A DNA stretch of 24,274 nucleotides from a virus (lineage: Duplodnaviria > Heunggongvirae > Uroviricota > Caudoviricetes). Of the stretch, positions 2,130-22,373 are shown in pieces; the stretch's first letter is position 1; the number at the start of each line of letters is the position of its first letter. The stretch is from the IMG/VR virus record IMGVR_UViG_3300024518_005076. One strand, 5' to 3'. The notes beneath the pieces were generated by a model, which saw only the letters and a program-made list of their open reading frames with translations, was not told the origin of the DNA and searched no databases. Position numbers and translations under genes: made by a program.

Positions 2130-3275
2130 TTACTTCCTTGTATCTTGCGACTTGAATCTATCTACGTGAACATTCACTGTAGAACCAGAAGCTACGGCTT
2201 CGTGCCGCTTTATCTCTCGACCTTTTTCGTCGATGAATCGGATCGTTACAACCCCAGGTGGTCCCTGTGGTCCAACGCTTCCGTCTTTTCCGTCTCGGCC
2301 TGGGCGTCCGTCTGCTCCGTCTCTTCCTGCCAGCCCGTCAGTTCCCGGCTGGCCTTGAGGGCCTTCACTGCCATCTTTTCCGTCTTTTCCGTCCTGGCCA
2401 TTATTGCCCTTGACTGGATTCTGCAATAATGCCTCAAGCTGTGCAATACGTTTCTCGTACTTTTCCAGAAGCGATCGCACTCGTATGTGCTCAGCAGACC
2501 TTTCTCGGTCAGAGTTGATCCAGACAGGGAGATCACCCTCAATGGGAGGGGCAGGCACGTCGTTTTCTGGTGATGGCGGAAGATCTGCACGCCACCTCTC
2601 GCACCATCCGTTCCGGCAATCCTTATCCATTAGTTTCTCGTTGGCTTCCATGAATCCCATGATCTGGCCATGCTCGGCTGCCCAGATTTGCCTGTTGTCA
2701 TGTCCATGAGTACTGATGCCAGCCAATCCGGATGTTCCGGACTTCAGATTACTGATGAAGATCGGGCCTCCAGAGCTTCCGCCAGCGAACTTACCATTCC
2801 GAAGATTGAACACGTTTCTGGTATTTCTCAGAGTGTTGTGTTTCAGATTATCCTTGAACACGAGGTCTGCCCGCTGCTTTTTAACGGGAGAGCCAGCCGG
2901 ATGACTGATAGAGAGCCATGACCCCGACTGGGGCAGAGGGCTGATAACCGAGACAGGTTCCGGAACATTCTTGGATGGGAGCTTGAAAAGTGCGAGATCT
3001 CGCTTACGATCGATCGCGATCCAGGTGCCTTTCCCAACCTTGATGCCTGCCGATGCAACATCAAACGTGCCTCCCACAGACCCAGTACAGTGGGCCGCAG
3101 AAAGACCAAACGCATGTTCAGCACCTTTTGCTATAATACAGCCGCTGCATCCAACCGGCCAGATTCTAACGAGGGAAGATTCGTAGTTCGAAGTGTCGTC
3201 AGCGATGACCTTGAGAGGCTCTCTGTCCGCCAGGATGGTCATGGACAGCAGCATAGCGAGAAGTAATCGTTTCAT
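2130..3275 (-). CDS. Secreted trypsin-like serine protease with Pro-rich linker, coiled coil and collagen-like repeat (381 aa)
   Basis: AAGGAGG SD before ATG 3275. Signal peptide MKRLLLAMLLSMTILA. Chymotrypsin-clan triad motifs LSAAHC (His), RDLALF (Asp) and GGSSGGP (Ser). 17 G-X-Y triplets near the C-terminus. Confidence 0.88.
   Translation of the reverse strand: MKRLLLAMLLSMTILADREPLKVIADDTSNYESSLVRIWPVGCSGCIIAKGAEHAFGLSAAHCTGSVGGTFDVASAGIKVGKGTWIAIDRKRDLALFKLPSKNVPEPVSVISPLPQSGSWLSISHPAGSPVKKQRADLVFKDNLKHNTLRNTRNVFNLRNGKFAGGSSGGPIFISNLKSGTSGLAGISTHGHDNRQIWAAEHGQIMGFMEANEKLMDKDCRNGWCERWRADLPPSPENDVPAPPIEGDLPVWINSDRERSAEHIRVRSLLEKYEKRIAQLEALLQNPVKGNNGQDGKDGKDGSEGPQGQPGTDGLAGRDGADGRPGRDGKDGSVGPQGPPGVVTIRFIDEKGREIKRHEAVASGSTVNVHVDRFKSQDTRK
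2253..2408 (-). repeat. Collagen-like (Gly-X-Y)17 coding repeat
   Basis: GNN GQD GKD GKD GSE GPQ GQP GTD GLA GRD GAD GRP GRD GKD GSV GPQ GPP G read directly from the translation. Confidence 0.92.
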
Positions 3276-3356
3276 GTCGTCCTCCTTGTGGGGAATGGAT
3301 TCTATCGCCAACAGGGATGCAATGGAATGAGATTCAAGCCAAAAGGAGGGTTTGTC

Positions 3357-3689
3357 ATGGCGACCCCGCATCACGGGAAAGACCCGTCCAGCGAGACTCC
3401 GAACGAGGAGCTTAGGCGACAACTGAGCAATACCGAAGCTTTTCTGAGCGAATTGTCCGGGGTAAACATGAAAAATTACCCAGATGGCAGATATGATGGT
3501 TCCGATGACGGAGAACTGCACTACGCTGTAGCGGCCAGCACTCAAGAGGATGCGATCATCCTGCGATTCCCCAAGCCGGTCACTTGGATCGGATTCACGG
3601 AAGAGTCAGCAGATGCACTGACCAGCACCCTGAACGAACTTGTCGAGCACATCAAAAACAGGGGAAAGAATGGACGGAGTAACAGCTAG
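3357..3689 (+). CDS. Conserved phage hypothetical protein (110 aa)
   Basis: AAGGAGG SD before ATG 3357. Pattern YPDGR…DDGEL…A…ILRFPKPVTWIG. Confidence 0.7.
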   Translation: MATPHHGKDPSSETPNEELRRQLSNTEAFLSELSGVNMKNYPDGRYDGSDDGELHYAVAASTQEDAIILRFPKPVTWIGFTEESADALTSTLNELVEHIKNRGKNGRSNS

Positions 3690-3990
3690 GAAAGAATTTC
3701 TCGCCGAGGTCGAATCCTGTGTCTGCCAAGCCAGGAACGAGAGCTACGACGAAGCAGAGAATAACTTTGCAAGAATTGCAGATATAGCAAATGTGATGCT
3801 TGGCTCAAAATTGAACTCTCCGCTCACTCCGGTTGATGTGGCCCTCTTCTCTATGTGCATCAAGATGGGCAGATTGGCATTTAAGCCGCACCACTGGGAT
3901 TCGTGGGTTGATACAGCTGGATATGCAGCTTGTGGTGCTGGCATTATCAAGCAGATGACGGAAGGATTAGAGCAGGACTCTTCAGCATGA
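3670..3990 (+). CDS. DUF6378-like phage protein
   Basis: R..SY…ENNFARIA…LTPVDVAL…KMGR…H.DSWVDTAGYAAC matches the DUF6378 pattern. Start at ATG 3670. Confidence 0.8.
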   Translation: MDGVTARKEFLAEVESCVCQARNESYDEAENNFARIADIANVMLGSKLNSPLTPVDVALFSMCIKMGRLAFKPHHWDSWVDTAGYAACGAGIIKQMTEGLEQDSSA

Positions 3991-6096: not shown

Positions 6097-6252
6097 ATGA
6101 AGCGGTACGAGATACTGTGTCGTAAGAAGGACACGCTGTTTCGGTACGCAGGAAAATCAGGCCGAAGGGCAGACTCATGGAGGAATCTTCAGGAAGAATC
6201 AGTCCTATGCCTCAGGAGCGTAAGGAGCGCACTCGATGAGCAGCTTTGTTGA
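6097..6252 (+). CDS. Small basic hypothetical protein (start uncertain; ORF extends back to 5965)
   Basis: Fills the gap between the HNH gene and the next gene. No strong SD. Confidence 0.35.
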   Translation: MKRYEILCRKKDTLFRYAGKSGRRADSWRNLQEESVLCLRSVRSALDEQLC

Positions 6253-6532
6253 AGTCGATCACGACGATCCATACTCGGCAACGAGACCTAGATCTGAATA
6301 TCAGTCGAGCATCAGAAAGACAACAGTCTCAACAGAGGCTGCGTTCAGCCTGTCTTGGCTTAAGAACCGCATTGCGATCGTGAATCTCGAAGATTCGATC
6401 CAGGCACTATGCGACATCGGGGAAACAAAGATGTCAAAGGTTCTTCAGGATAGTTGTGCGAACATAAGCGGCATCTGCGACATACTCGAAGAGATGAGTA
6501 TGGAGAAGCATGGGAAGCTGCCCGCTAGATAG
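6236..6532 (+). CDS. Hypothetical protein (98 aa)
   Basis: Last gene of the plus-strand block. Its stop overlaps the stop of the convergent PAS gene. Confidence 0.6.
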   Translation: MSSFVEVDHDDPYSATRPRSEYQSSIRKTTVSTEAAFSLSWLKNRIAIVNLEDSIQALCDIGETKMSKVLQDSCANISGICDILEEMSMEKHGKLPAR

Positions 6533-7052
6533 CCTCTCTCTTACTGAATATAGCAATCGCCAGTCTTCCTGGTATTCCCCAGATACTGATTCTCACTGGA
6601 TCGCTGTCGGAAGTCGCAGTCTTGGCGACACAGTCAACAGTTTGCTGAAACGGCTTGGCTGGTGCTCCCATGGCTGATGAAAAACTACTGCGATGCGCAT
6701 CTCTCATCCCCTGTGGGATCAAATGAGCTACCCCGTACCCGAAAACATCAGCCCTCTTGGTTCCGAAGAATTTTGAAGCGCCGTCAGACCACATTGTGAT
6801 GATCCCGTTTTCGTCAACACCGACAACCGCCGATCCTGATTGTTCTAACACATCAAACACGACCTGGGCATCGCCCTTGCTTTTTCTTAGTTCTTCGCGA
6901 AGCTCAACGACCTGCTTATAAACATCCGATGGGGGAACAGAAAGCCTCATGGATACGTTTAGTGCGAGCGCGAGCCCTAAAACCATTACGATATTCAGGA
7001 CCAGCAGAAGTGCTGTGTTTATCTTCTGTTGGTCGTTGTTGACTTCAGTCAT
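6525..7052 (-). CDS. Membrane-anchored stand-alone PAS-domain protein (175 aa)
   Basis: ATG 7052 overlaps the holin-like stop (ATGACTGA). TM helix INTALLLVLNIVMVLGLALAL, then a short coiled coil. PAS signature SAVVGVDENGIITMWSDGASKFFG…DVFGYGVAHLIPQGMRDAH. No output domain. Confidence 0.85.
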   Translation of the reverse strand: MTEVNNDQQKINTALLLVLNIVMVLGLALALNVSMRLSVPPSDVYKQVVELREELRKSKGDAQVVFDVLEQSGSAVVGVDENGIITMWSDGASKFFGTKRADVFGYGVAHLIPQGMRDAHRSSFSSAMGAPAKPFQQTVDCVAKTATSDSDPVRISIWGIPGRLAIAIFSKREAI

Positions 7053-7314
7053 TTCTTTGTCTTTCTGCCAATTTGGCGAGTTGGTTTTTAACTTGTCCCA
7101 ACACCGTAATAAACTCACGTGTGAGATCCTCAAATTTCTTGTCTTTTTCATCTATATGCCTCAGCCACTCAGACCTCTCATCGGCGTGTCTCTTCTCGAT
7201 TGATGGTATGTGTTTGACGACCAGATACCAGACAAGGGCACCGAACCCACCAGCCGTGACCAGCTGAATGATTGGCGCTACCCAGCTCATTGTTGTGTCA
7301 TCCGCGAGAATCAT
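7045..7314 (-). CDS. Holin-like small membrane protein (BhlA/UviB-type architecture)
   Basis: One N-terminal TM helix (IIQLVTAGGFGALVWYLVV) followed by a charged coiled coil (IEKRHADERSEW…). Two in-frame Met starts (7314 and 7290). Confidence 0.6.
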   Translation of the reverse strand: MILADDTTMSWVAPIIQLVTAGGFGALVWYLVVKHIPSIEKRHADERSEWLRHIDEKDKKFEDLTREFITVLGQVKNQLAKLAERQRND

Positions 7315-7343
7315 TCTACGGCTTTCTGTATAATCTGGAAAAC

Positions 7344-9575
7344 TTATCTCGTGGAATATTTGAAGTCGCCTCCAGACCGAAGAGACTCCCGAACGTCATC
7401 CAGGGCTGACTGTAAAGATTTTCTTTCGTCATCAACAGTGACTACGCGAGATCCAAAAGCCTCTTCGAATTCGCAATCAGACATAATGTCCGTATGTCCA
7501 CCCATATAATCTACAATCTTCTCGCCTTTCTTGCCATCCGAGACTGACTGAATCGCGAACACAATGTCGACTTGATCAAGGACGGCGTCTCCAAAATCGG
7601 CCTGATGGACAGCCTCATAGCACAAAACGACACTGTCTGAAGTATCTGGTGATCTTCCTATTTTTTCTTTTATTGTTGGAAGTGCGGCCCGCTTCTTGTT
7701 CTGGCTCCTCTGCTTAGGCGTGATGTAGTACTTCTGCATGTCTGTGTCGTAAATCTTCTCGTGAGCCGCCATTTCATCCACGAGTTCCGTATCGTTGAAG
7801 ATCATGAATGGGTCGAGGTGTTGCGAGTCGGGATTGATCCTGGCCCCGAACTCACCGTAAAGCTCCGCCCGGCGATTCATGTATCTTTTGGGAAATCTGA
7901 CGGGAGCCTCGTTTCCATGAACCCGGATAACCCAACAGCCTGCATCCTCAAGAATGTCAGCCATGGCGACTCCGCCAGCACCGATAATATCGATGGCCAT
8001 CGGGTGGTCACCCAGACAGATGTCAATTCCCAAGGACTTGCACGTCTCAACGATCCACGAGAGTGTTGATCTGGTGTCCGCCTTTCTTGTCCACTTCTTG
8101 CCCTTGATTCCTGCTGTGCCTCCATAAGTCAGAACCGTCTTGTCCTTATCCACGGAGTAAGCAAGGTCGAGGCCGAATCCGCTGATCTGGATTTCGTCCC
8201 GGTGCTCGCTCCACATCTCCATAGGACCCCTCATCCACGATGGAGGGACAACCTGCATCTCAAGATCTTCAGGTGGGAATTTGCCCTCGCCTGACCACGC
8301 CTTTTCGATGTCGTCCACGCCCTGCATGATGGTCGTGTACTTCAGATAATCCATCTGTCCTGGGATCAGAGCCCGGACATGCTTCTGGACCTCTTTGTCG
8401 ATAGGGTCGCCCTCGGCATAGAAATACTCTTCCCCATCAATCGTCTCAAACTCGATACCGCCAGGTGGTGCGAACTCGGGCATCTGCAATCTCTTGGCCC
8501 GTACATTCAGACAGTCGCGACCACCGAATGTCAGGCAGGCACGCTTAATACCCCGCTGGATGAAGACTTGGTTCTTGTCCGGGTCTTCCTTCGGAAACAA
8601 GTCAAAGAACCAGCCCGAGAGGACACGTGGGTTGGAGATGCAGATAATTTTGCGGCACTGCTTACGGAGGTTCTTCAGCATAAACTGAGGCACGGCAGAC
8701 GACTCGTCCACGACTCCAAGGGTATTTGCTCCGTGACGGCCAGATACACCTTCACCAGTCTCTGGATTGGCGATAATCAAAGAGTGTCTAGGATTATCTG
8801 GGTCCTTGAGTTCAGTTGTCAGGTTGGCACCTGAACCAGGATGGGCCATCTTCTTCCGCCATGTGACAAGCTCAGCGAACATAACATCCTTGGAATGTGC
8901 GGACGACTGGCTGGTCATGATGATTCTGTCATCCGGATACAGGTAGTACCAGAGACACAGACATAAAGCGGTAATGAACCCCTTGCCCGGAGAAGTTGAC
9001 CCTTTAATCGCGATCTCTCTGATCGTCGGATCGAACAGATGCAGGGCAAATTCACACTGGACATCATCGAGACGCAGGTTCAGGGCGTAGTCTCGCTCGC
9101 AGTGTTTCTTGAAGTATCTAAGATCGAGTTCGTCATGTATGACCAGTTCTGGCCACATGATCTCTATCAGCCTCCAGGGACTTCCGCCTATGGCTTCCAT
9201 CTTGGCTTTTCGGAGAGAAACTGCCCTGATCCTGGCTGGTGTTAAATCTTCCGAAGAATCTATTCTTTGCTGGATTTTTTCCGCGACTTTCTCGTCGTTT
9301 CGCTTAACCTGTGGCTTCTTCTCGATGATCGGAATCTCATCAAGGTCAAACCCATGATCGACCAACACCTTCTCTGTTCGGCGATTGCTCGTATATTGGC
9401 CGTTCCTTCCTCGGTCGAGAAAACCCTCGTCAGAAAGGAACTTCAGATCACTGGCGTCGACGCCCTTTGATCGCAGAGTGTCGTCAATCGCCTTGGATGC
9501 AGTGACGTGACCGCGATGCTTCCACACGTTACAAAGCAGGGACAGATGATCGATTTTCAGGTACGGATCCGTCAT
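7344..9575 (-). CDS. terL: Terminase large subunit (extended, 743 aa)
   Basis: P-loop region IAIKGSTSPGKG, then LW…P…IIMTS. GRHG…GVVDES (Walker B) and ISNP coupling motif. Nuclease motifs GLDLA, IDIIGAG, NRRAELY and RSPDTSDS. Confidence 0.88.
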   Translation of the reverse strand: MTDPYLKIDHLSLLCNVWKHRGHVTASKAIDDTLRSKGVDASDLKFLSDEGFLDRGRNGQYTSNRRTEKVLVDHGFDLDEIPIIEKKPQVKRNDEKVAEKIQQRIDSSEDLTPARIRAVSLRKAKMEAIGGSPWRLIEIMWPELVIHDELDLRYFKKHCERDYALNLRLDDVQCEFALHLFDPTIREIAIKGSTSPGKGFITALCLCLWYYLYPDDRIIMTSQSSAHSKDVMFAELVTWRKKMAHPGSGANLTTELKDPDNPRHSLIIANPETGEGVSGRHGANTLGVVDESSAVPQFMLKNLRKQCRKIICISNPRVLSGWFFDLFPKEDPDKNQVFIQRGIKRACLTFGGRDCLNVRAKRLQMPEFAPPGGIEFETIDGEEYFYAEGDPIDKEVQKHVRALIPGQMDYLKYTTIMQGVDDIEKAWSGEGKFPPEDLEMQVVPPSWMRGPMEMWSEHRDEIQISGFGLDLAYSVDKDKTVLTYGGTAGIKGKKWTRKADTRSTLSWIVETCKSLGIDICLGDHPMAIDIIGAGGVAMADILEDAGCWVIRVHGNEAPVRFPKRYMNRRAELYGEFGARINPDSQHLDPFMIFNDTELVDEMAAHEKIYDTDMQKYYITPKQRSQNKKRAALPTIKEKIGRSPDTSDSVVLCYEAVHQADFGDAVLDQVDIVFAIQSVSDGKKGEKIVDYMGGHTDIMSDCEFEEAFGSRVVTVDDERKSLQSALDDVRESLRSGGDFKYSTR

Positions 9576-9594: not shown

Positions 9595-10548
9595 ATGTTG
9601 CACATTGCCTATATCTTCCCAAAAGACCTTTATCAGACCAAGATGTCTCCGGGAAGGAAGATGTATGGGGAGGCAGTCGACAGACTGGATGATGCGAAAG
9701 TTACAGTTACTGGACCTGGCTGGTGGAAGAGCAACGACATCAGGGAGTCGCTTCCAGAAATCGAACGAGAGCACGGACCAGTCGACGCTTTGTGGTGCTA
9801 CAAGACCGAGAATGTGACAGGGCTCAGAGACTTGGATATTCCTCGCGTGTTCGTGTTCAACGAAGCCAACGATGAAGAGAAGACTCGTAAGGATATCAAC
9901 GACGCATCGGCTACGCATTGTGTTTTTCATCATTACGGCGACCATGTCAGATGGGTCCATGTACTTGCCGATGAGGGAGTAAGCGCCTCTCTTCAGAATC
10001 ATTGCGCTCCAGGAAACCCATTTGCCGACACGTCACCGTGGGAACAGAGGCCGACTAAGTGTCTGCTGACTGGGGCTATCGGGTTTCACGTGTACCCTCT
10101 TCGGTTCAAGTACGAGTCTCTTCTGAGGAATAGAGATCTGGACGGATACGGGCTGCCTCATCCCGGATACAGAATTGGAGGTTCTCAGGCTATTCGTTCC
10201 CAGTACGAGTCGTACATGATGTCAATGGCCAGGGCGAAGATAGCTCTGTGCTGCACCAGTCGATACAAGTACCCGCTCGCCAAGTTGTTTGAGGCTGCTG
10301 CGTCTGGATGTGTCATCGCAACAGACAAGCCTGAATGTCCGATGTTTGAACAGTCGCTCTGGCCGTGGTGCATCCAGATTGACTCGTCGTGGACAAGTGG
10401 AGAGACCGCTGAGTGCATCAACAGTTTCCCAGATGAAACACTGAAGACAATGGCGTACCACACACTTCGAACGGCCCGAGAAGTGTTCACAATGGAAGGC
10501 TGGGCCAGGAAATTCACAGACACTGTCAGAAAGAAAATCAATGAGTGA
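9595..10548 (+). CDS. Glycosyltransferase, GT-B fold, CgeB/Glyco_trans_1_2-like
   Basis: C-terminal Y…MARAKIAL…YPLAKLFEAAASGCVIATD is typical of CgeB-like glycosyltransferases. Confidence 0.78.
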   Translation: MLHIAYIFPKDLYQTKMSPGRKMYGEAVDRLDDAKVTVTGPGWWKSNDIRESLPEIEREHGPVDALWCYKTENVTGLRDLDIPRVFVFNEANDEEKTRKDINDASATHCVFHHYGDHVRWVHVLADEGVSASLQNHCAPGNPFADTSPWEQRPTKCLLTGAIGFHVYPLRFKYESLLRNRDLDGYGLPHPGYRIGGSQAIRSQYESYMMSMARAKIALCCTSRYKYPLAKLFEAAASGCVIATDKPECPMFEQSLWPWCIQIDSSWTSGETAECINSFPDETLKTMAYHTLRTAREVFTMEGWARKFTDTVRKKINE

Positions 10549-11431
10549 TCAGGATTTAGCTACCGCCCTTCAGGATAAGTTTCTCCCTTCAGAGGTTGAC
10601 TGGCGAGTTCAGTCCAGCGGAGACAAGGGCAACGGGCCGTTCGCAAAAGTGCTGGCGTATATTGATGCCCGAGCAATTCAGAATCGGCTTGATTCAGTTG
10701 CTGGCGCTGGCGGGTGGAGAGTTGAACAGCCAATCCCAGTACACGGATCGGCCCCGTTTATCAGCTACAAGTTTGATGGTAAATGGGACCGGTACAAGAT
10801 TGGTTCGCCTTCAACTAAGGACAAGGCGACAGATGTGGTCACGCTTGGAATCCTAGACAGTGCCCTGACGGGATTTTTGACAGGCATTTCGATCAAGATT
10901 GATGGTGAGTGGGTGACTCGCTGGGATGGTGCAGATGTTACTGACATTGAATCATTCAAGGGCGGGCTTTCCAGCAGCTTCAAGAGAGCGGCTGCCCAGT
11001 GGGGAATCGGACGTTACCTTTACGACCTGAAGGAAGGATGGGCGATATTTGATCACCCCCATGTGAAGAAGTCGTGCCACAAAGACAAGATCGGAAATAA
11101 CTGGAGAGAGTGGCTGCCGCCCAAGCTTCCAGACTGGGCACTCCCTGATGGGTACGAAGGGGACCAGTACGCTCATATCCTGGGCGGCGATACATCCGCT
11201 CCGGAGAAGGCAGCAGCGCCAGCCTTGGCGCAAGAAGAGTCGTCGCAGGACCTCTATAATAAGATTGTCGCTGCGGTTGCGGATGCCACAAACAAGACGC
11301 CAATGGACAGGGCTGCTCTGGAGAAGTACCAGAAATCAACCCATGATCGCTTCGAGCAGGGTAAGCTGAACGACATAAATTACCAGCAGCTCATCAAGCT
11401 GTTCGAAACAGTACTGAAAACGGAGGAATAA
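10541..11431 (+). CDS. Rad52/Rad22-family ssDNA-annealing protein (Sak-like)
   Basis: F.PSEVDWRV…LAYIDARAIQNRLDSVAG…W and KGGLSSSFKRAAAQWGIGRYLY. Confidence 0.9.
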   Translation: MSDQDLATALQDKFLPSEVDWRVQSSGDKGNGPFAKVLAYIDARAIQNRLDSVAGAGGWRVEQPIPVHGSAPFISYKFDGKWDRYKIGSPSTKDKATDVVTLGILDSALTGFLTGISIKIDGEWVTRWDGADVTDIESFKGGLSSSFKRAAAQWGIGRYLYDLKEGWAIFDHPHVKKSCHKDKIGNNWREWLPPKLPDWALPDGYEGDQYAHILGGDTSAPEKAAAPALAQEESSQDLYNKIVAAVADATNKTPMDRAALEKYQKSTHDRFEQGKLNDINYQQLIKLFETVLKTEE

Positions 11432-11433
11432 TA

Positions 11434-12189
11434 ATGAATCTGGACGAGATGCTAATCAGGGATGATTACAAGGCAGCCTGCCGACCCCTCTTCGAGAATG
11501 AGATGGCAGGCCTGATAGATTCGATTGTGAATAACAAAGAGGGGTTTCTTGACCCCCTGAAGTTCCATCTGAATGAAGAGGGAGTTCCCACGCTCCTGGA
11601 TGGCCATCATCGGATGTCGATCTGGCAAGGGGAGCATGGGAAAGATCTCGACAAACCCAGAACCCAAGAGGTTATTCCTCTCTCTGGGGCTTCACCCGAG
11701 GAAGCGATTGAATGGATCAGGAACCATCAGCGGAACCGGAGGAACGACACGAATGAGTTTCGATACCAGCTCGGGAAAGAACTGATCGAAACAGACAAGA
11801 CTTCTGTCCAGATTGCCCAGGAATACGGAGTCACAGACAGTGTTGTTCGCCACTCGGGCGACTACGCAATGGCTGTCGACAATCTGGAGAGCGAGGTTCC
11901 GGGAATTAAGGAAGAGTTGATTAGTGACGACCCTCCGGCTACCCGAAGTCAGGTTGTCAACGATCCAGGTTCAGTCGCCGCAGCAGTAACTGGTGCCCCA
12001 GTTGAGAAGAATCCAATCCAGCTCTTCGAGGGAGTCAATAAGGCGCTGGGTTCTCTGGTGCGGAGAGTCAAGGCTCTTGAAGACGAAACTGGGAAGACCG
12101 ACCTGTCATCCAAGTTTGAGCAGCAGTTAAGGGAGTGTTTTATCTCCCTGGAGTCATGGGAAGACCAGTACCTCGAATTTCATCAGTAA
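11434..12189 (+). CDS. ParB/Srx-like N-terminal domain protein with HTH
   Basis: L..SI…GFLDPL…LLDGHHR (ParB-N). Then QRNRRN and HTH-like SVQIAQEYGVTDSVVR, with a helical C-terminus. Confidence 0.75.
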   Translation: MNLDEMLIRDDYKAACRPLFENEMAGLIDSIVNNKEGFLDPLKFHLNEEGVPTLLDGHHRMSIWQGEHGKDLDKPRTQEVIPLSGASPEEAIEWIRNHQRNRRNDTNEFRYQLGKELIETDKTSVQIAQEYGVTDSVVRHSGDYAMAVDNLESEVPGIKEELISDDPPATRSQVVNDPGSVAAAVTGAPVEKNPIQLFEGVNKALGSLVRRVKALEDETGKTDLSSKFEQQLRECFISLESWEDQYLEFHQ

Positions 12190-12198
12190 GGAAAACCA

Positions 12199-12576
12199 AT
12201 GGATCGTCATCAGTTTGTGAAAGAGTTGATTGTGGAAAGGGACCAGCTCAAAGAGCAGGTTGCGAACCTCAAGAATGATAGAGACAAGGCCAGAAGGCGG
12301 ACGCGGGAGTCTGTCTCTGATCTTCTGAACCCAAAACCAATCACTCCGTCGAGCCTTACGTTATTACCGGAAAGCGGCTTCACATTCTCAGTGGTTGGGC
12401 CAGGCCCGCCCCGTGAGGATGAGCAGGTTTCCGACTACGCCATCAAGAATCTGTGCGGAGAAATCTCCAGCCTTAAGAAGGAAGTGGAGACGATCTGTGA
12501 ACAGACCAAGGACTACAATTCGAGAGATTTTGTGGCCCAGTTCAAAGCCCTGTTGGACACTCTGGAGGATGAATGA
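12199..12576 (+). CDS. Coiled-coil hypothetical protein (125 aa)
   Basis: AAGGA SD and heptad-rich N- and C-termini. ATGA-coupled to the next gene. Confidence 0.7.
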   Translation: MDRHQFVKELIVERDQLKEQVANLKNDRDKARRRTRESVSDLLNPKPITPSSLTLLPESGFTFSVVGPGPPREDEQVSDYAIKNLCGEISSLKKEVETICEQTKDYNSRDFVAQFKALLDTLEDE

Positions 12577-13097
12577 AAATCCTGTCGCTGGATCCTGCAA
12601 CCAAATGTGGATGGGCGTTATCGAACTCCCTTTCCGGCACTTGGGATCTGTCCGTGAAGCAGGATGAGTCCTCTGGGGCGAGATACCTTCGCCTCTGGAA
12701 CTATCTGGATGAGTTGCATCAGAGCAATGGTATCGACCTGATTGTTTTCGAAGCGTCCCGTAACCCCAAGCACTCCAGGGCAGTCGTCATTCTTGCTCGG
12801 ATACAAGGGACGATTGAGTTATGGGCAACCCAGAACGATGTTGAATATCAGCCCGTCAGCCCAATGACGATCAAGGTGTTCGCCACAGGAAACAACAAGG
12901 CTTCGAAAGCAGAGATGATTTCTGCTGCCAAGAAATATACAGGAAGGCGTAAGATTATCGACGATAATCACGCTGACGCCGTTCTTCTTTTAGAGTTGGC
13001 CAAAGAAAAGTATGGAAACATACCGATCTCAGATCTGAAGAAAGTCCTGATCTCAAATAAGATCGAATCCGCTATGAAGGAAAGACATAAACAATGA
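12573..13097 (+). CDS. ruvC: RuvC-like Holliday junction resolvase
   Basis: ILSLDP…GWA (Asp1), IVFE (Glu), SPMTIKVFATG…ASKAEM and DDNHADA. Confidence 0.85.
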   Translation: MKILSLDPATKCGWALSNSLSGTWDLSVKQDESSGARYLRLWNYLDELHQSNGIDLIVFEASRNPKHSRAVVILARIQGTIELWATQNDVEYQPVSPMTIKVFATGNNKASKAEMISAAKKYTGRRKIIDDNHADAVLLLELAKEKYGNIPISDLKKVLISNKIESAMKERHKQ

Positions 13098-13372
13098 CTC
13101 AGGCGTCATCAGAAACACGAAACCTGCTTAGCTCTTTCCAGAAACTACAGGACGGATACGTGAAAAGACTGCACGTAGATAAACGGGTCGTACAGAAGAA
13201 TCGCAAGACGGGATCTAAGAATCCGCCCATCACGATCCAGACTTCTGACGGGCCGATTAAGTGTATGAAGGCCGAGATTCATGGCCCTTCAACGCTGGAA
13301 TATTCAGAGAAGCCCCTCAGCTGCGGGGCCAGAGTATTCATTACAACCAAAGCCGAAGTCACAATGGAGTAA
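13094..13372 (+). CDS. Conserved phage hypothetical protein
   Basis: LHVD…KN.KTG…PPITI…IHGPS…Y..KPLSCGARVFI.T is a recurrent phage pattern of unknown function. Confidence 0.75.
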   Translation: MTQASSETRNLLSSFQKLQDGYVKRLHVDKRVVQKNRKTGSKNPPITIQTSDGPIKCMKAEIHGPSTLEYSEKPLSCGARVFITTKAEVTME

Positions 13373-13374
13373 TT

Positions 13375-13998
13375 ATGGAAGACAGAACAAAATATGACGG
13401 CACGATCGAAACATTCAGCGGGGTCTTGTTTGACCTGTTGAACCCACAGTCAACCGACATCAGATTGATTGATATAGCTCACGCGCTATCGGCAACCAAC
13501 AGGTTTGCGGGCCACACTCGAAAACCTTACTCAGTGGCGCAACATAGTGTTATCTGCTCGTACAACTGTGACCACCCTGGCTGGGCGTTGATGCATGATA
13601 GCTCAGAAGCCTTTGTTGGAGATGTAACGAGACCACTGAAGCAAATGTTGGGCGACACGTACAAGAACATCGAGAAGAATATCCTGTACGCAATCGGGAT
13701 TCACTTCAAGCTACCCCCTTATGAGAACCAGGCCGCTATCGTGAAGGAGATCGACAACAGGCTCTTGGTAACAGAGAAGCGAGATTTGATGCCTGATAAT
13801 GAGTGGTGGTATCTGCAAGATGTCGAGCCACTGGAAGACAGGATAGAGCCTTGGTCATTCCAAGAGTCAAAATCAAAATTTATCGACAGGGCACTGAGTT
13901 TGTTTCCTCATCTGATTCCGGAGTACGAGAGAGATATTGATCGCATTGTTACATCCTCAATGTCTCCGACGATTCCATTTCCGGTAGGGGGAAGATGA
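13375..13998 (+). CDS. HD-domain phosphohydrolase (YfbR-like 5'-deoxynucleotidase family)
   Basis: DIAHALS…RFAGH…YSVAQHS…ALMHDSSEAFVGD…PLK. Start at ATG 13375 after GGAG. Confidence 0.88.
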   Translation: MEDRTKYDGTIETFSGVLFDLLNPQSTDIRLIDIAHALSATNRFAGHTRKPYSVAQHSVICSYNCDHPGWALMHDSSEAFVGDVTRPLKQMLGDTYKNIEKNILYAIGIHFKLPPYENQAAIVKEIDNRLLVTEKRDLMPDNEWWYLQDVEPLEDRIEPWSFQESKSKFIDRALSLFPHLIPEYERDIDRIVTSSMSPTIPFPVGGR

Positions 13999-21213: not shown

Positions 21214-21587
21214 CCCGTAGCGAGCTGGAATCTAAGATCAGGACATGGGCGTCGGAGTTCTCAGAGATAGCCTCAGAGAGCGTCCCAGAGGCCTTCGTGA
21301 AGTACCTCGCAAACAGATTGACCGAGACAGGGTTGGGACAGGAGGACCCTGATGTTCTCGCAGTCCGCACTCCGGACGGAATCTTTGCCGCCAGGGTGGA
21401 ATGGGAAAATAAAGAGGCCGGAGTCGTGTGTGTTTGCCTGATCGATACAGGTGAGGTGCTGGTATCTCGATATGACGCCCTGATCAGGAATGTCGACCGA
21501 TCGAAGCTTGCGAGGGCGCTGGACTCCAAGGACTGGTCAGAGCCGAAGATTCTGACTTCAGTCAGCGCCGACTCGGGCGCTAAATAA
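21210..21587 (+). CDS. Hypothetical protein (125 aa)
   Basis: ATGA coupling and GGAG SD. Its stop overlaps the stop of the convergent lipase gene. Confidence 0.65.
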   Translation: MTRSELESKIRTWASEFSEIASESVPEAFVKYLANRLTETGLGQEDPDVLAVRTPDGIFAARVEWENKEAGVVCVCLIDTGEVLVSRYDALIRNVDRSKLARALDSKDWSEPKILTSVSADSGAK

Positions 21588-22344
21588 ACATAGCCGCATA
21601 GTCAGCTGCTGAGTGCTGCCTGACAGAGTAGTGGCTTGTTGATTTGATTCTGTCGTACAGGCAGTAGTACCATGATGGCTCAAAGATCATCATGTCATCC
21701 CGGTTGAAATAGACCAGATCACCAGCGTGTCTGTACCGGTACGGAGGAATGAGCCTCGGAACGATGTCGCCCTTGTTCACGACCCTGAACAGACGACCGT
21801 TCATCTGGTTTGTCATCTTCCTGGCAAGTGGCCTGCCAAGGTGTCGTGGAGCCCCGAATGTGTAGACTCCGGCAACCTCTCCATACCCATCAGTCTCCAT
21901 GTGCCATCCGCAAAGACTCGCCATTGCGCCGCCCGCTGAATGGCCAGTGATAACCATCTTGGCTGTTTTGGGATCTGGCAACAATGAATAGAGGCAATCG
22001 TCCAGCTTCTTCCAGATATTCTTGAAGGATAATAGGAACCCAGTGTGGACGTTCCATTCCTTCCAGTAGGTGGGCCTGATCATGAGATTCCGCTTATGGT
22101 CCGAGACCGACCTGGTCCCACGGAAAGCGATGACAGCGAAGTTATCTTTTATGATAACCAGGCAGCTGTTCCTGTCATGGGAAATGGGAACGTAATGGTC
22201 GCAATTCCAGTTCTGGCGTGATTCGATCGACTCGGCATCCTGATCTGTGTAGCAGGCGTCGTAGCTTGCCTCTGCACAGATAATGCCCGCCTCTTTATTG
22301 AACGCGCCTGGCTTGAATATCTGCTGTGCTCTCTTGAGGTTCAT
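21580..22344 (-). CDS. Class 3 (fungal-type) lipase, alpha/beta hydrolase
   Basis: IAFRGT (oxyanion), VHTGF, TGHSAGG (GxSxG), YTFGAPR, RVVN.GDIVPRL (Asp) and a C-terminal His (QHS). GGAG SD favours ATG 22344 over 22356. Confidence 0.9.
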   Translation of the reverse strand: MNLKRAQQIFKPGAFNKEAGIICAEASYDACYTDQDAESIESRQNWNCDHYVPISHDRNSCLVIIKDNFAVIAFRGTRSVSDHKRNLMIRPTYWKEWNVHTGFLLSFKNIWKKLDDCLYSLLPDPKTAKMVITGHSAGGAMASLCGWHMETDGYGEVAGVYTFGAPRHLGRPLARKMTNQMNGRLFRVVNKGDIVPRLIPPYRYRHAGDLVYFNRDDMMIFEPSWYYCLYDRIKSTSHYSVRQHSAADYAAMFI

Positions 22345-22373
22345 GTGTATCTCCATTGTGGAGTTACTAGAGG

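Follow-up and report, generated by a model that had tools for sequence, protein, structure and literature searches.

A mobile two-gene phage module pairs an output-less, membrane-anchored PAS protein of heme-PAS kinship with a small conserved membrane protein, possibly as sensor and effector

What might a phage do with a membrane-anchored sensory domain to which nothing is attached that it could drive? The question is raised by two overlapping genes in a 24,274-nucleotide (nt) stretch of DNA (the window) from the Caudoviricetes record IMGVR_UViG_3300024518_005076, a 68.6-kb IMG/VR virus record with a completeness estimate of 69%, of which the window is the reverse complement of bases 44317–68590. 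The first gene encodes an 89-amino-acid (aa) single-pass membrane protein, P0002, and the second a 175-aa PAS protein, P0001; an earlier note on this DNA had read them as a holin-like gene coupled to an environment-sensing regulator. The analyses that follow establish the genes, the fold of P0001 and its kinship to heme-PAS domains, the position of the putative ligand histidine, the conserved pairing of the two genes and the mobility of the cassette that they form. We suggest that the pair is a mobile phage-borne two-gene membrane module in which a heme-PAS sensor controls a small membrane effector, and give this reading a probability of roughly 40%.

Three minus-strand genes, namely terL (terminase large subunit) and the open reading frames (ORFs) of 89 and 175 aa, form a small island between oppositely oriented gene blocks (Table 1). 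Only 29 nt separate terL from the P0002 gene, and the stop codon of the latter overlaps the start codon of the P0001 gene (ATGACTGA), an arrangement that points to translational coupling of the two. Read directly, the ORF coordinates and the overlap agree with the description in the earlier note of a holin-like ORF overlapping a PAS gene after terL. Since each ORF has many relatives (at least 27 full-length ones for P0001 and 38 for P0002), both are real genes. A promoter and terminator scan gave nothing above chance.

Residues 68–128 of P0001 match the Pfam PAS family PF00989 with 29.4 bits (Pfam cut-off 22.6), and the AlphaFold2 (AF2) model built from a 28-sequence alignment (predicted local distance difference test, pLDDT, 94) shows a transmembrane (TM) helix at residues 4–36, a helix at 41–72 and a PAS fold at 75–171, with strands 75–80, 84–88, 135–143, 151–160 and 164–171 and helices between them. 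When this model was compared with the PDB by Foldseek, 217 matches at E≤0.001 were obtained, the best 50 listed being PAS domains throughout. The TM–helix–PAS layout claimed earlier is thus borne out, as is the claim that the protein is output-less: P0001 has no output domain, unlike its cellular structural look-alikes in large clusters, every one of which has one. A juxtamembrane motif, RLxVxPSDVxxEV, follows the TM helix and is conserved in the family alignment (A2). A word-indexed homolog search with P0001 found only a 99% copy; the relatives emerged by exhaustive HMMER search (counted as 50%-identity clusters; 25–47% identity, 164–227 aa) and share the TM–linker–PAS layout. No loci related to P0001 were found in a search of viral contigs, a search of genome contigs returned generic bacterial PAS domains only and pinned no host, and the cluster names of the bacterial PAS proteins nearest to P0001 gave no coherent host.

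The nearest solved relatives of the P0001 PAS domain, by sequence and by predicted structure, are heme-PAS domains. When the P0001-family profile was run against all PDB sequences, the top 14 places were taken by FixL, DosP/EcDOS and FG214 (6.7e-14 to 2e-9), with non-heme PAS domains ranking below them and several orders of magnitude weaker; the same set, all heme-PAS, supplied the first 14 Foldseek matches of the P0001 model; and phmmer with the single P0001 PAS domain matched only EcDOS/DosP and FixL at E<0.001. HMMER pairs the family sequence LIPxxMRxxH with LMPEPDRSRH of FixL and LIPRDLRPAH of EcDOS (the family His was aligned to BjFixL by the profile, and His120 to EcDOS by single-sequence phmmer), so that a motif L-[IM]-P-x-x-x-R-x-x-H is common to all three and His120 therefore stands on the proximal heme ligand position, where the earlier note had put it by eye. 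Among the residues that contact heme in these PAS clusters, none is invariable except the proximal His of the F-alpha helix (PMC10468136). His120 is conserved in 26 of 28 family members and Cys141 equally often; in the P0047/L022 lineage both are gone, replaced by Tyr and Gly, respectively.

Cys141 may be a second heme ligand or a redox-active residue. The HMMER alignments end before the distal-ligand strand (FixL Arg220; DosP Met95/Arg97), where residues were placed by eye, and by this spacing Cys141 lies two residues beyond the distal Arg position of FixL/DosP. His/Cys ligation chemistry is plausible for P0001 because it is known in the heme-PAS CO sensor RcoM, in which the proximal His and a Cys 20 residues further on (His74/Cys94) ligate the ferric heme and a redox ligand switch brings in Met104; the corresponding spacing in P0001 is 21. 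RcoM has a LytTR DNA-binding output and the P0001 family conserves no equivalent of Met104, so that we use the comparison as an analogy only, the known likeness being the PAS fold and the His/Cys spacing. Heme binding by the P0001 PAS domain is probable, and P0001 appears, as a domain and pending spectroscopy, to be a new member of the FixL/DosP/FG214 heme-PAS group.

We counted every PAS-family gene with visible DNA or gene calls, and a P0002 homolog lies directly upstream, overlapping or abutting, in 11 of 11 distinct contexts (the window, L006, the P0010 contig, L007–9, L010–12, L013, L021/22/33–35, L025, L026, L027–29 and L030, the L numbers being our handles; overlap or abutment was seen in L006, L007, L010, L013, L022, L025, L026, L027 and L030). 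The neighbourhoods are otherwise unrelated (Table 1). Since the pairing is constant and its surroundings vary, the pair is an autonomous mobile two-gene module to which terL, the upstream gene of the same transcription unit, does not belong, and the terL linkage is incidental. The order of holin-like and PAS gene that the earlier note proposed to look for in relatives is therefore found, and the inclusion of terL in that order has to be given up. The conserved overlapping synteny indicates a functional tie between the two genes, neither of which occurs in 50,697 deposited phage genomes. A prediction of the P0001–P0002 complex with family alignments scored 0.00, which is no verdict and was used neither way.

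The small gene is also found without a PAS gene, alone or beside other partners (L020, L031, L032 and L023/24; Table 1). The 80-aa partner in L023 is a homolog of the TM and linker part of the PAS family (hhalign 96.8%) that keeps the TM helix and the RLxVxPSDVxxEV motif despite loss of the PAS domain. A small membrane protein that is constant and a sensor partner that is optional are what one would expect if the former is an effector and the latter its dispensable regulator.

A sister phage, L002 (IMGVR_UViG_3300009149_006481), shows the cassette being exchanged. In blastn comparison, window positions 10593–7345 correspond to L002 2946–6188 and window positions 6528–5679 to L002 6781–7636, with no similarity between, and the boundaries of the swap are exact, coinciding with the terL stop codon and the end of the convergent gene. 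Two other overlapping genes occupy the place of the pair. The 75-aa ORF of L002 was considered as a member of the P0002 family (alignment A3) and rejected (hhalign probability 0.4%). The second gene encodes P0005, for which Pfam and PDB sequence searches gave no match; in the ESM Atlas it scores 0.96 to PF00072 clusters, its single-sequence AF2 model (pLDDT 65) has alternating beta and alpha elements, the best Foldseek matches of that model are almost all receiver domains at weak values (E 2e-3 or worse), and a DD...D...T...K pattern can be seen by eye. It is probable but unproven that P0005 is a receiver-like protein. The slot downstream of terL accepts cassettes of the type 'small membrane protein plus signalling-type domain'.

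P0002 is the more conserved partner of the pair. It has an acidic N-terminal tail, one TM segment at approximately residues 10–33 (nt 7216–7287) and a highly charged, helical C-terminus; its relatives, each a 90%-identity cluster, are all unnamed, and further copies occur in the fetched loci. In alignment A3 (41 sequences) 11 residues are invariant (L18, T20, G22, G23, F24, G25, L27, W29, P37, H43 and R47), most of them in a glycine-rich and exceptionally conserved TM helix, LVTAGGFGALVWY, which is followed by the juxtamembrane motif KHIPxIExRHxxERxEW. The charges flanking the helix across the family (0 Lys/Arg versus 82 Asp/Glu before it, 157 Lys/Arg after it) clearly predict an N-out/C-in topology, which would place the juxtamembrane motif in the cytoplasm.

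Size, single TM segment, predicted topology and charged C-terminal tail are holin-like traits, and the nearest named ESM-Atlas clusters of P0002 are BhlA-type single-TM holins (0.92 by features, TM-score 0.61–0.68). This BhlA lead was not confirmed by Pfam, 0 of 41 relatives matching PF10960 even at E≤5. BhlA/UviB/TpeE holins (PF10960, TCDB 1.E.27) resemble P0002 in mass (about 8–10 kDa) and in an N-terminal TM segment followed by a charged or amphipathic helix, and differ in coming from Bacillota, where they lie beside amidases; a TatA-like topology has been described for these single-TM holins (PMC9527704). P0002-family genes are found in late operons, where their neighbours are terL or genes for tail fibres. 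The holin genes of T7 and T4 likewise lie in late operons beside terL or tail-fibre genes, and are not adjacent to the endolysin genes of these phages. The L032 context, in which genes for a lipase and an exported protease come directly after the small gene, also speaks for a holin-like role. The earlier note had further suggested a dual-start holin, with Met codons at 7314 and 7290; this did not hold in the family, where the second Met is present in 13 of 41 members and both in 7 of 41, with no Lys or Arg between them. That P0002 is a holin is a candidate reading and unproven.

In the mechanism that we favour, the PAS domain of P0001 would hold heme b via His120, Cys141 lying in the distal pocket or close to it, and its conformation would respond to O2, to the redox state or to a different heme ligand. 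The signal would then pass via the linker helix and the juxtamembrane/TM region to P0002 as the effector, and P0002, late in infection, would most probably permeabilise the cytoplasmic membrane in the manner of a holin, with P0001 serving as a sensor-bearing antiholin or activator that couples lysis timing to the respiratory state of the host. We lean towards regulation of P0002 by the P0001 sensor, and hold a role of the pair in lysis as tentative. The most specific version, an oxygen- or redox-gated lysis switch in which a heme-PAS sensor antiholin stands beside a new single-TM holin family and the slot (receiver-like in L002) is a general plug-in point for host signals, we consider rather unlikely. 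As for the regulator or sensor proposed in the earlier note, its heme-type PAS domain and the coupling of the genes stand, and the relevance of terL and the dual start do not.

Known heme-PAS proteins suggest how such a sensor may work and set it apart. P0001 shares with the oxygen sensors FixL (Bradyrhizobium/Sinorhizobium) and EcDOS/DosP the PAS fold, the L-[IM]-P-x3-R-x2-H motif with its His position, and an N-terminal helix leading into the PAS domain; their output is a kinase or a c-di-GMP phosphodiesterase, whereas P0001 has a single TM anchor, a nearly invariant Cys instead of the distal Arg (by eye), and heme binding that is predicted only. FG214 of Fimbriimonas ginsengisoli (PDB 10jx) is the top Foldseek match (7e-8) and the second-best profile match (1e-13, whole domain aligned). 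It is a small heme-PAS one-component regulator that switches its oligomeric state according to how the heme is ligated (bioRxiv 10.64898/2026.03.15.711900), and such a switch offers a plausible model for an output-less sensor. Unlike P0001, FG214 is soluble, has a helix–turn–helix (HTH) DNA-binding output and bis-His ligation, and carries Thr at the Cys position of the phage family.

On the effector side, T4 T/RI and P1 LydA/LydB combine, as the phage pair does, a small membrane effector with an optional adjacent membrane-associated regulator; they have no sequence similarity to the pair, in which P0002 is a holin candidate only. The antiholins described so far either respond to superinfection or are isoforms of the holin, and we know of none with a cofactor-type sensor domain. 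The VqmA-Phage protein of vibriophage VP882 (PMC8284805) is a phage PAS sensor that reads a cellular signal, as proposed here for P0001, and differs in being a soluble PAS–HTH factor that binds the autoinducer DPO, with no heme, anchor or membrane partner and no sequence relationship to P0001. It was the only phage PAS sensor returned by a full-text literature search, which yielded no description, in phages or elsewhere, of a heme-type PAS protein that is tethered to the membrane, lacks an output and has a small membrane protein as its dedicated partner.

Several observations weigh against the mechanism that we favour. None of the 41 P0002-family members matches any Pfam holin family, and P0002 lacks a PHROG holin match. 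In about 15 contexts the neighbours of the pair include no recognisable endolysin, and none was found among 24 proteins of this phage (Pfam; one also by PHROGs), the record being about 69% complete; Pfam or PHROGs searches with about 35 neighbours of the pair in other phages likewise gave no recognisable endolysin. That the TM helix is nearly invariant among unrelated phages is atypical of holins, and a conserved host target could be the reason. The record moreover holds, outside the window, another holin candidate: a 60-aa ORF (G000:C1:13474–13656, minus strand) whose two strongly hydrophobic segments give it the layout expected of a two-TM holin or pinholin. Concerning the sensor, the distal Arg of FixL/DosP is apparently not conserved, its position (by-eye spacing from the DG turn) being Val or Ile in the family, and the topology of P0001 is ambiguous by flanking charges.

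The last two points also speak for a PAS domain that works without heme, with the His and Cys serving a metal, an Fe–S centre, a small molecule or, if periplasmic, an intermolecular disulfide, or with the domain acting as a dimerisation scaffold. This alternative concerns the signal and not the output, and can be combined with any other reading. The FixL-containing cluster also holds PAS domains of other chemistry (PMC10468136); moreover, the distal Met of DosP is, by eye, no better conserved in the family than the Arg, two family members lack the His and two the Cys, and one lineage has no PAS domain at all. Since all of the closest solved relatives in three independent searches are heme-binding PAS domains, and the His falls exactly at the proximal-ligand position within its motif, we regard a heme-free PAS domain as unlikely.

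If P0002 opens the membrane, which enzymes might follow it? In L032 (IMGVR_UViG_3300032132_000007; L032:6001–8628) a P0002-family gene, a class-3 lipase gene (PF01764, 6.5e-25) and a Trypsin_2 protease gene stand in direct succession, and may form an unconventional lysis cassette; the protease ORF, 574 aa long from its first start codon, contains a signal-peptide-like start at an internal position and a thioredoxin-like CGGC motif, with a coiled coil at the C-terminus. Among the contexts checked, this adjacency to the small gene is confined to L032. Homologs or analogs of both enzymes are present elsewhere in the window phage (Lipase_3 and Trypsin_2–collagen; Table 1), and we consider the lipase and the protease candidate lytic enzymes of this phage group, in which a classical endolysin was not recognised. 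Upstream in L032, on the opposite strand, there is an ORF that matches Sigma-70 region 2.

A different output is conceivable, in which the module interferes with host signalling: P0001 would heterodimerise with PAS domains of host membrane sensor kinases, the receiver-like protein of L002 would drain phosphate, and the small TM protein would serve as connector or anchor in the membrane, like small kinase-modulating membrane proteins, so that two-component signalling and not lysis would be rewired. The missing output domain of P0001 fits such a role, as do the finding that P0001 is closest, outside its own family, to PAS repeats in large bacterial sensor proteins, the clean swap that places a receiver-like protein in the same slot of L002, and the moron-like, stand-alone two-gene island of L010. 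Strict pairing with one highly conserved small protein, however, suggests a dedicated partner and not diverse host kinases, and the PAS-less variant of L023, which keeps only the TM and linker part, indicates that PAS–PAS heterodimerisation is not the core function. The receiver assignment of P0005 itself fails in Pfam and PDB sequence searches and rests on a model of pLDDT 65. We judge this interference improbable; the decoy for host kinases that the earlier note had offered as its second option is neither supported nor excluded, and is kept alive by the receiver-like gene of L002.

Still less probable is a non-lytic membrane moron, acting for example in superinfection exclusion or membrane protection, with P0002 as effector tuned by the heme-PAS domain to the redox state: morons and exclusion genes are typically located in or beside tail and tail-fibre genes, as the pair often is (L021, L025, L010, L030), and the variable neighbourhood, the exchangeable cassette and an extreme TM conservation that suggests a conserved host or phage target would suit it, but the pair shows no similarity to known exclusion or defence proteins (no match in the defence-system libraries; PADLOC none, PHROGs none), is co-transcribed with the late gene terL in the window and L006, whereas temperate phages usually express their exclusion genes as prophages, and adjoins a lipase and a protease in L032 in a manner that fits lysis better.

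Table 1. Positions of the features discussed and genomic placement of the gene pair and its variants (window coordinates unless a locus is named)
Feature	Position	Strand	Basis or remark
terL, 743 aa	7344–9575	minus	PHROG phrog_2 terminase large subunit, 2.2e-17; 80% identical to L002 TerL
Small partner gene, P0002, 89 aa	7045–7314	minus	Single-pass membrane ORF
Overlap ATGACTGA: TGA stop of the 89-aa ORF (7047–7045) over ATG of the 175-aa ORF (7052–7050)	7045–7052	minus	Read from sequence
PAS protein gene, P0001, 175 aa	6525–7052	minus	PF00989 match, AF2 model, family of at least 27 clusters
TM helix of P0001, approximately residues 11–35	6948–7022	minus	Hydropathy 2.64; AF2 helix 4–36
Long linker helix from TM to PAS, residues 41–72	6837–6932	minus	AF2
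PAS domain, residues 75–171, FixL/DosP/FG214 heme-PAS type	6540–6830	minus	Profile, Foldseek, phmmer
His120 codon CAT, proximal heme ligand position (BjFixL His200, EcDOS His77)	6693–6695	minus	HMMER alignments
Cys141 codon TGT, first long beta strand after the His helix (AF2 E135–143)	6630–6632	minus	Conserved 26/28
Convergent 98-aa gene, downstream cassette boundary	6236–6532	plus	3' end overlaps PAS gene stop by 8 nt
Exchangeable cassette	6529–7344	minus	Replaced by another two-gene cassette in L002 (6189–6780)
L002 75-aa ORF	L002 6218–6445		Single TM, charged tail
L002 overlapping 115-aa receiver-like ORF, P0005	L002 6429–6776
Lipase_3 gene	21580–22356	minus	94.5 bits (Pfam)
Exported Trypsin_2 protease gene with collagen repeat	2130–3545	minus	Pfam
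Pair after terL	Window and L006
Pair after glycosyltransferase gene	L007–9 and 229-kb contig of P0010
Pair as stand-alone two-gene island between helicase gene and tail-fibre gene	L010–12
Pair on short contig	L013		1.1 kb, context not informative
Pair after tape-measure gene	L021/22/33–35
Pair between tail spike and integrase genes	L025		Temperate phage; small ORF missed by gene caller
Pair after head genes	L026
Pair among unannotated ORFs downstream of glycosyltransferase gene	L027–29
Pair between Laminin_G_3 fibre-like genes	L030
Small gene alone, without PAS gene	L020, L031
Small gene, no PAS, directly before Lipase_3 and then Trypsin_2 protease	L032
Small gene before 80-aa PAS-less protein	L023/24		Partner homologous to TM+linker part of the PAS family

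Some further features of these genomes were seen in passing. Group-1 glycosyltransferase genes are often found near the pair (L007, the P0010 contig, L027, L020, and 9595–10548 in the window), and proteins or motifs of the thioredoxin fold turn up in several contexts no more than a few kb away (L027:9279–10019, L010:510–1172 and the protease ORF of L032). Two unrelated pair-carrying contigs encode a CsrA homolog (PF02599), which in L021 (16240–16446) directly follows an HTH_3 gene and in L025 (15062–15352) has HTH_17 and integrase genes upstream. With respect to terminase genes, the terL homolog of L006 (L006:2290–4525) is called as two ORFs (323 and 338 aa) on a 2x-coverage contig, probably owing to an assembly frameshift, and L023 encodes, at 10916–13906, a 996-aa terminase large subunit whose N-terminal part has additional matches to DnaC-like and primase families; this protein may be a fusion or may carry an inserted element, and two genes upstream of its gene is the small gene with its PAS-less partner. 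The window also encodes a DUF6378 protein (PF19905, 5.5e-20; 3640–3990, plus strand), found at the same place in L006, and outside the window there are genes for an SPFH/Band-7 domain protein (PF01145, 1e-18; G000:C1:12065–12583, plus strand) and a sulfotransferase-like protein (PF13469, 1.3e-6; G000:C1:13892–14488, minus strand).

Finally, heme-PAS sensors are the textbook oxygen and redox sensors of bacteria and, to our knowledge, always drive an attached enzyme or DNA-binding domain. Here a heme-type PAS domain is found in phages, stripped of its output and tied to a dedicated small membrane protein, in a cassette that moves between unrelated phages. If heme binding and the coupling of the two proteins are real, these phages would sense the O2 or redox state of the host directly at the membrane late in infection, which would amount to a new means of timing lysis, or of taking some other decision at the membrane, and would bear on phage ecology in oxyclines. 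On the lysis-switch reading, many uncultured phages that live in stratified or oxygen-variable waters would open the host membrane only when the respiratory state of the cell allows. The pair would also serve as a minimal model of signal transfer from a PAS domain to a separate partner in the membrane, its two chains amounting to about 260 residues.

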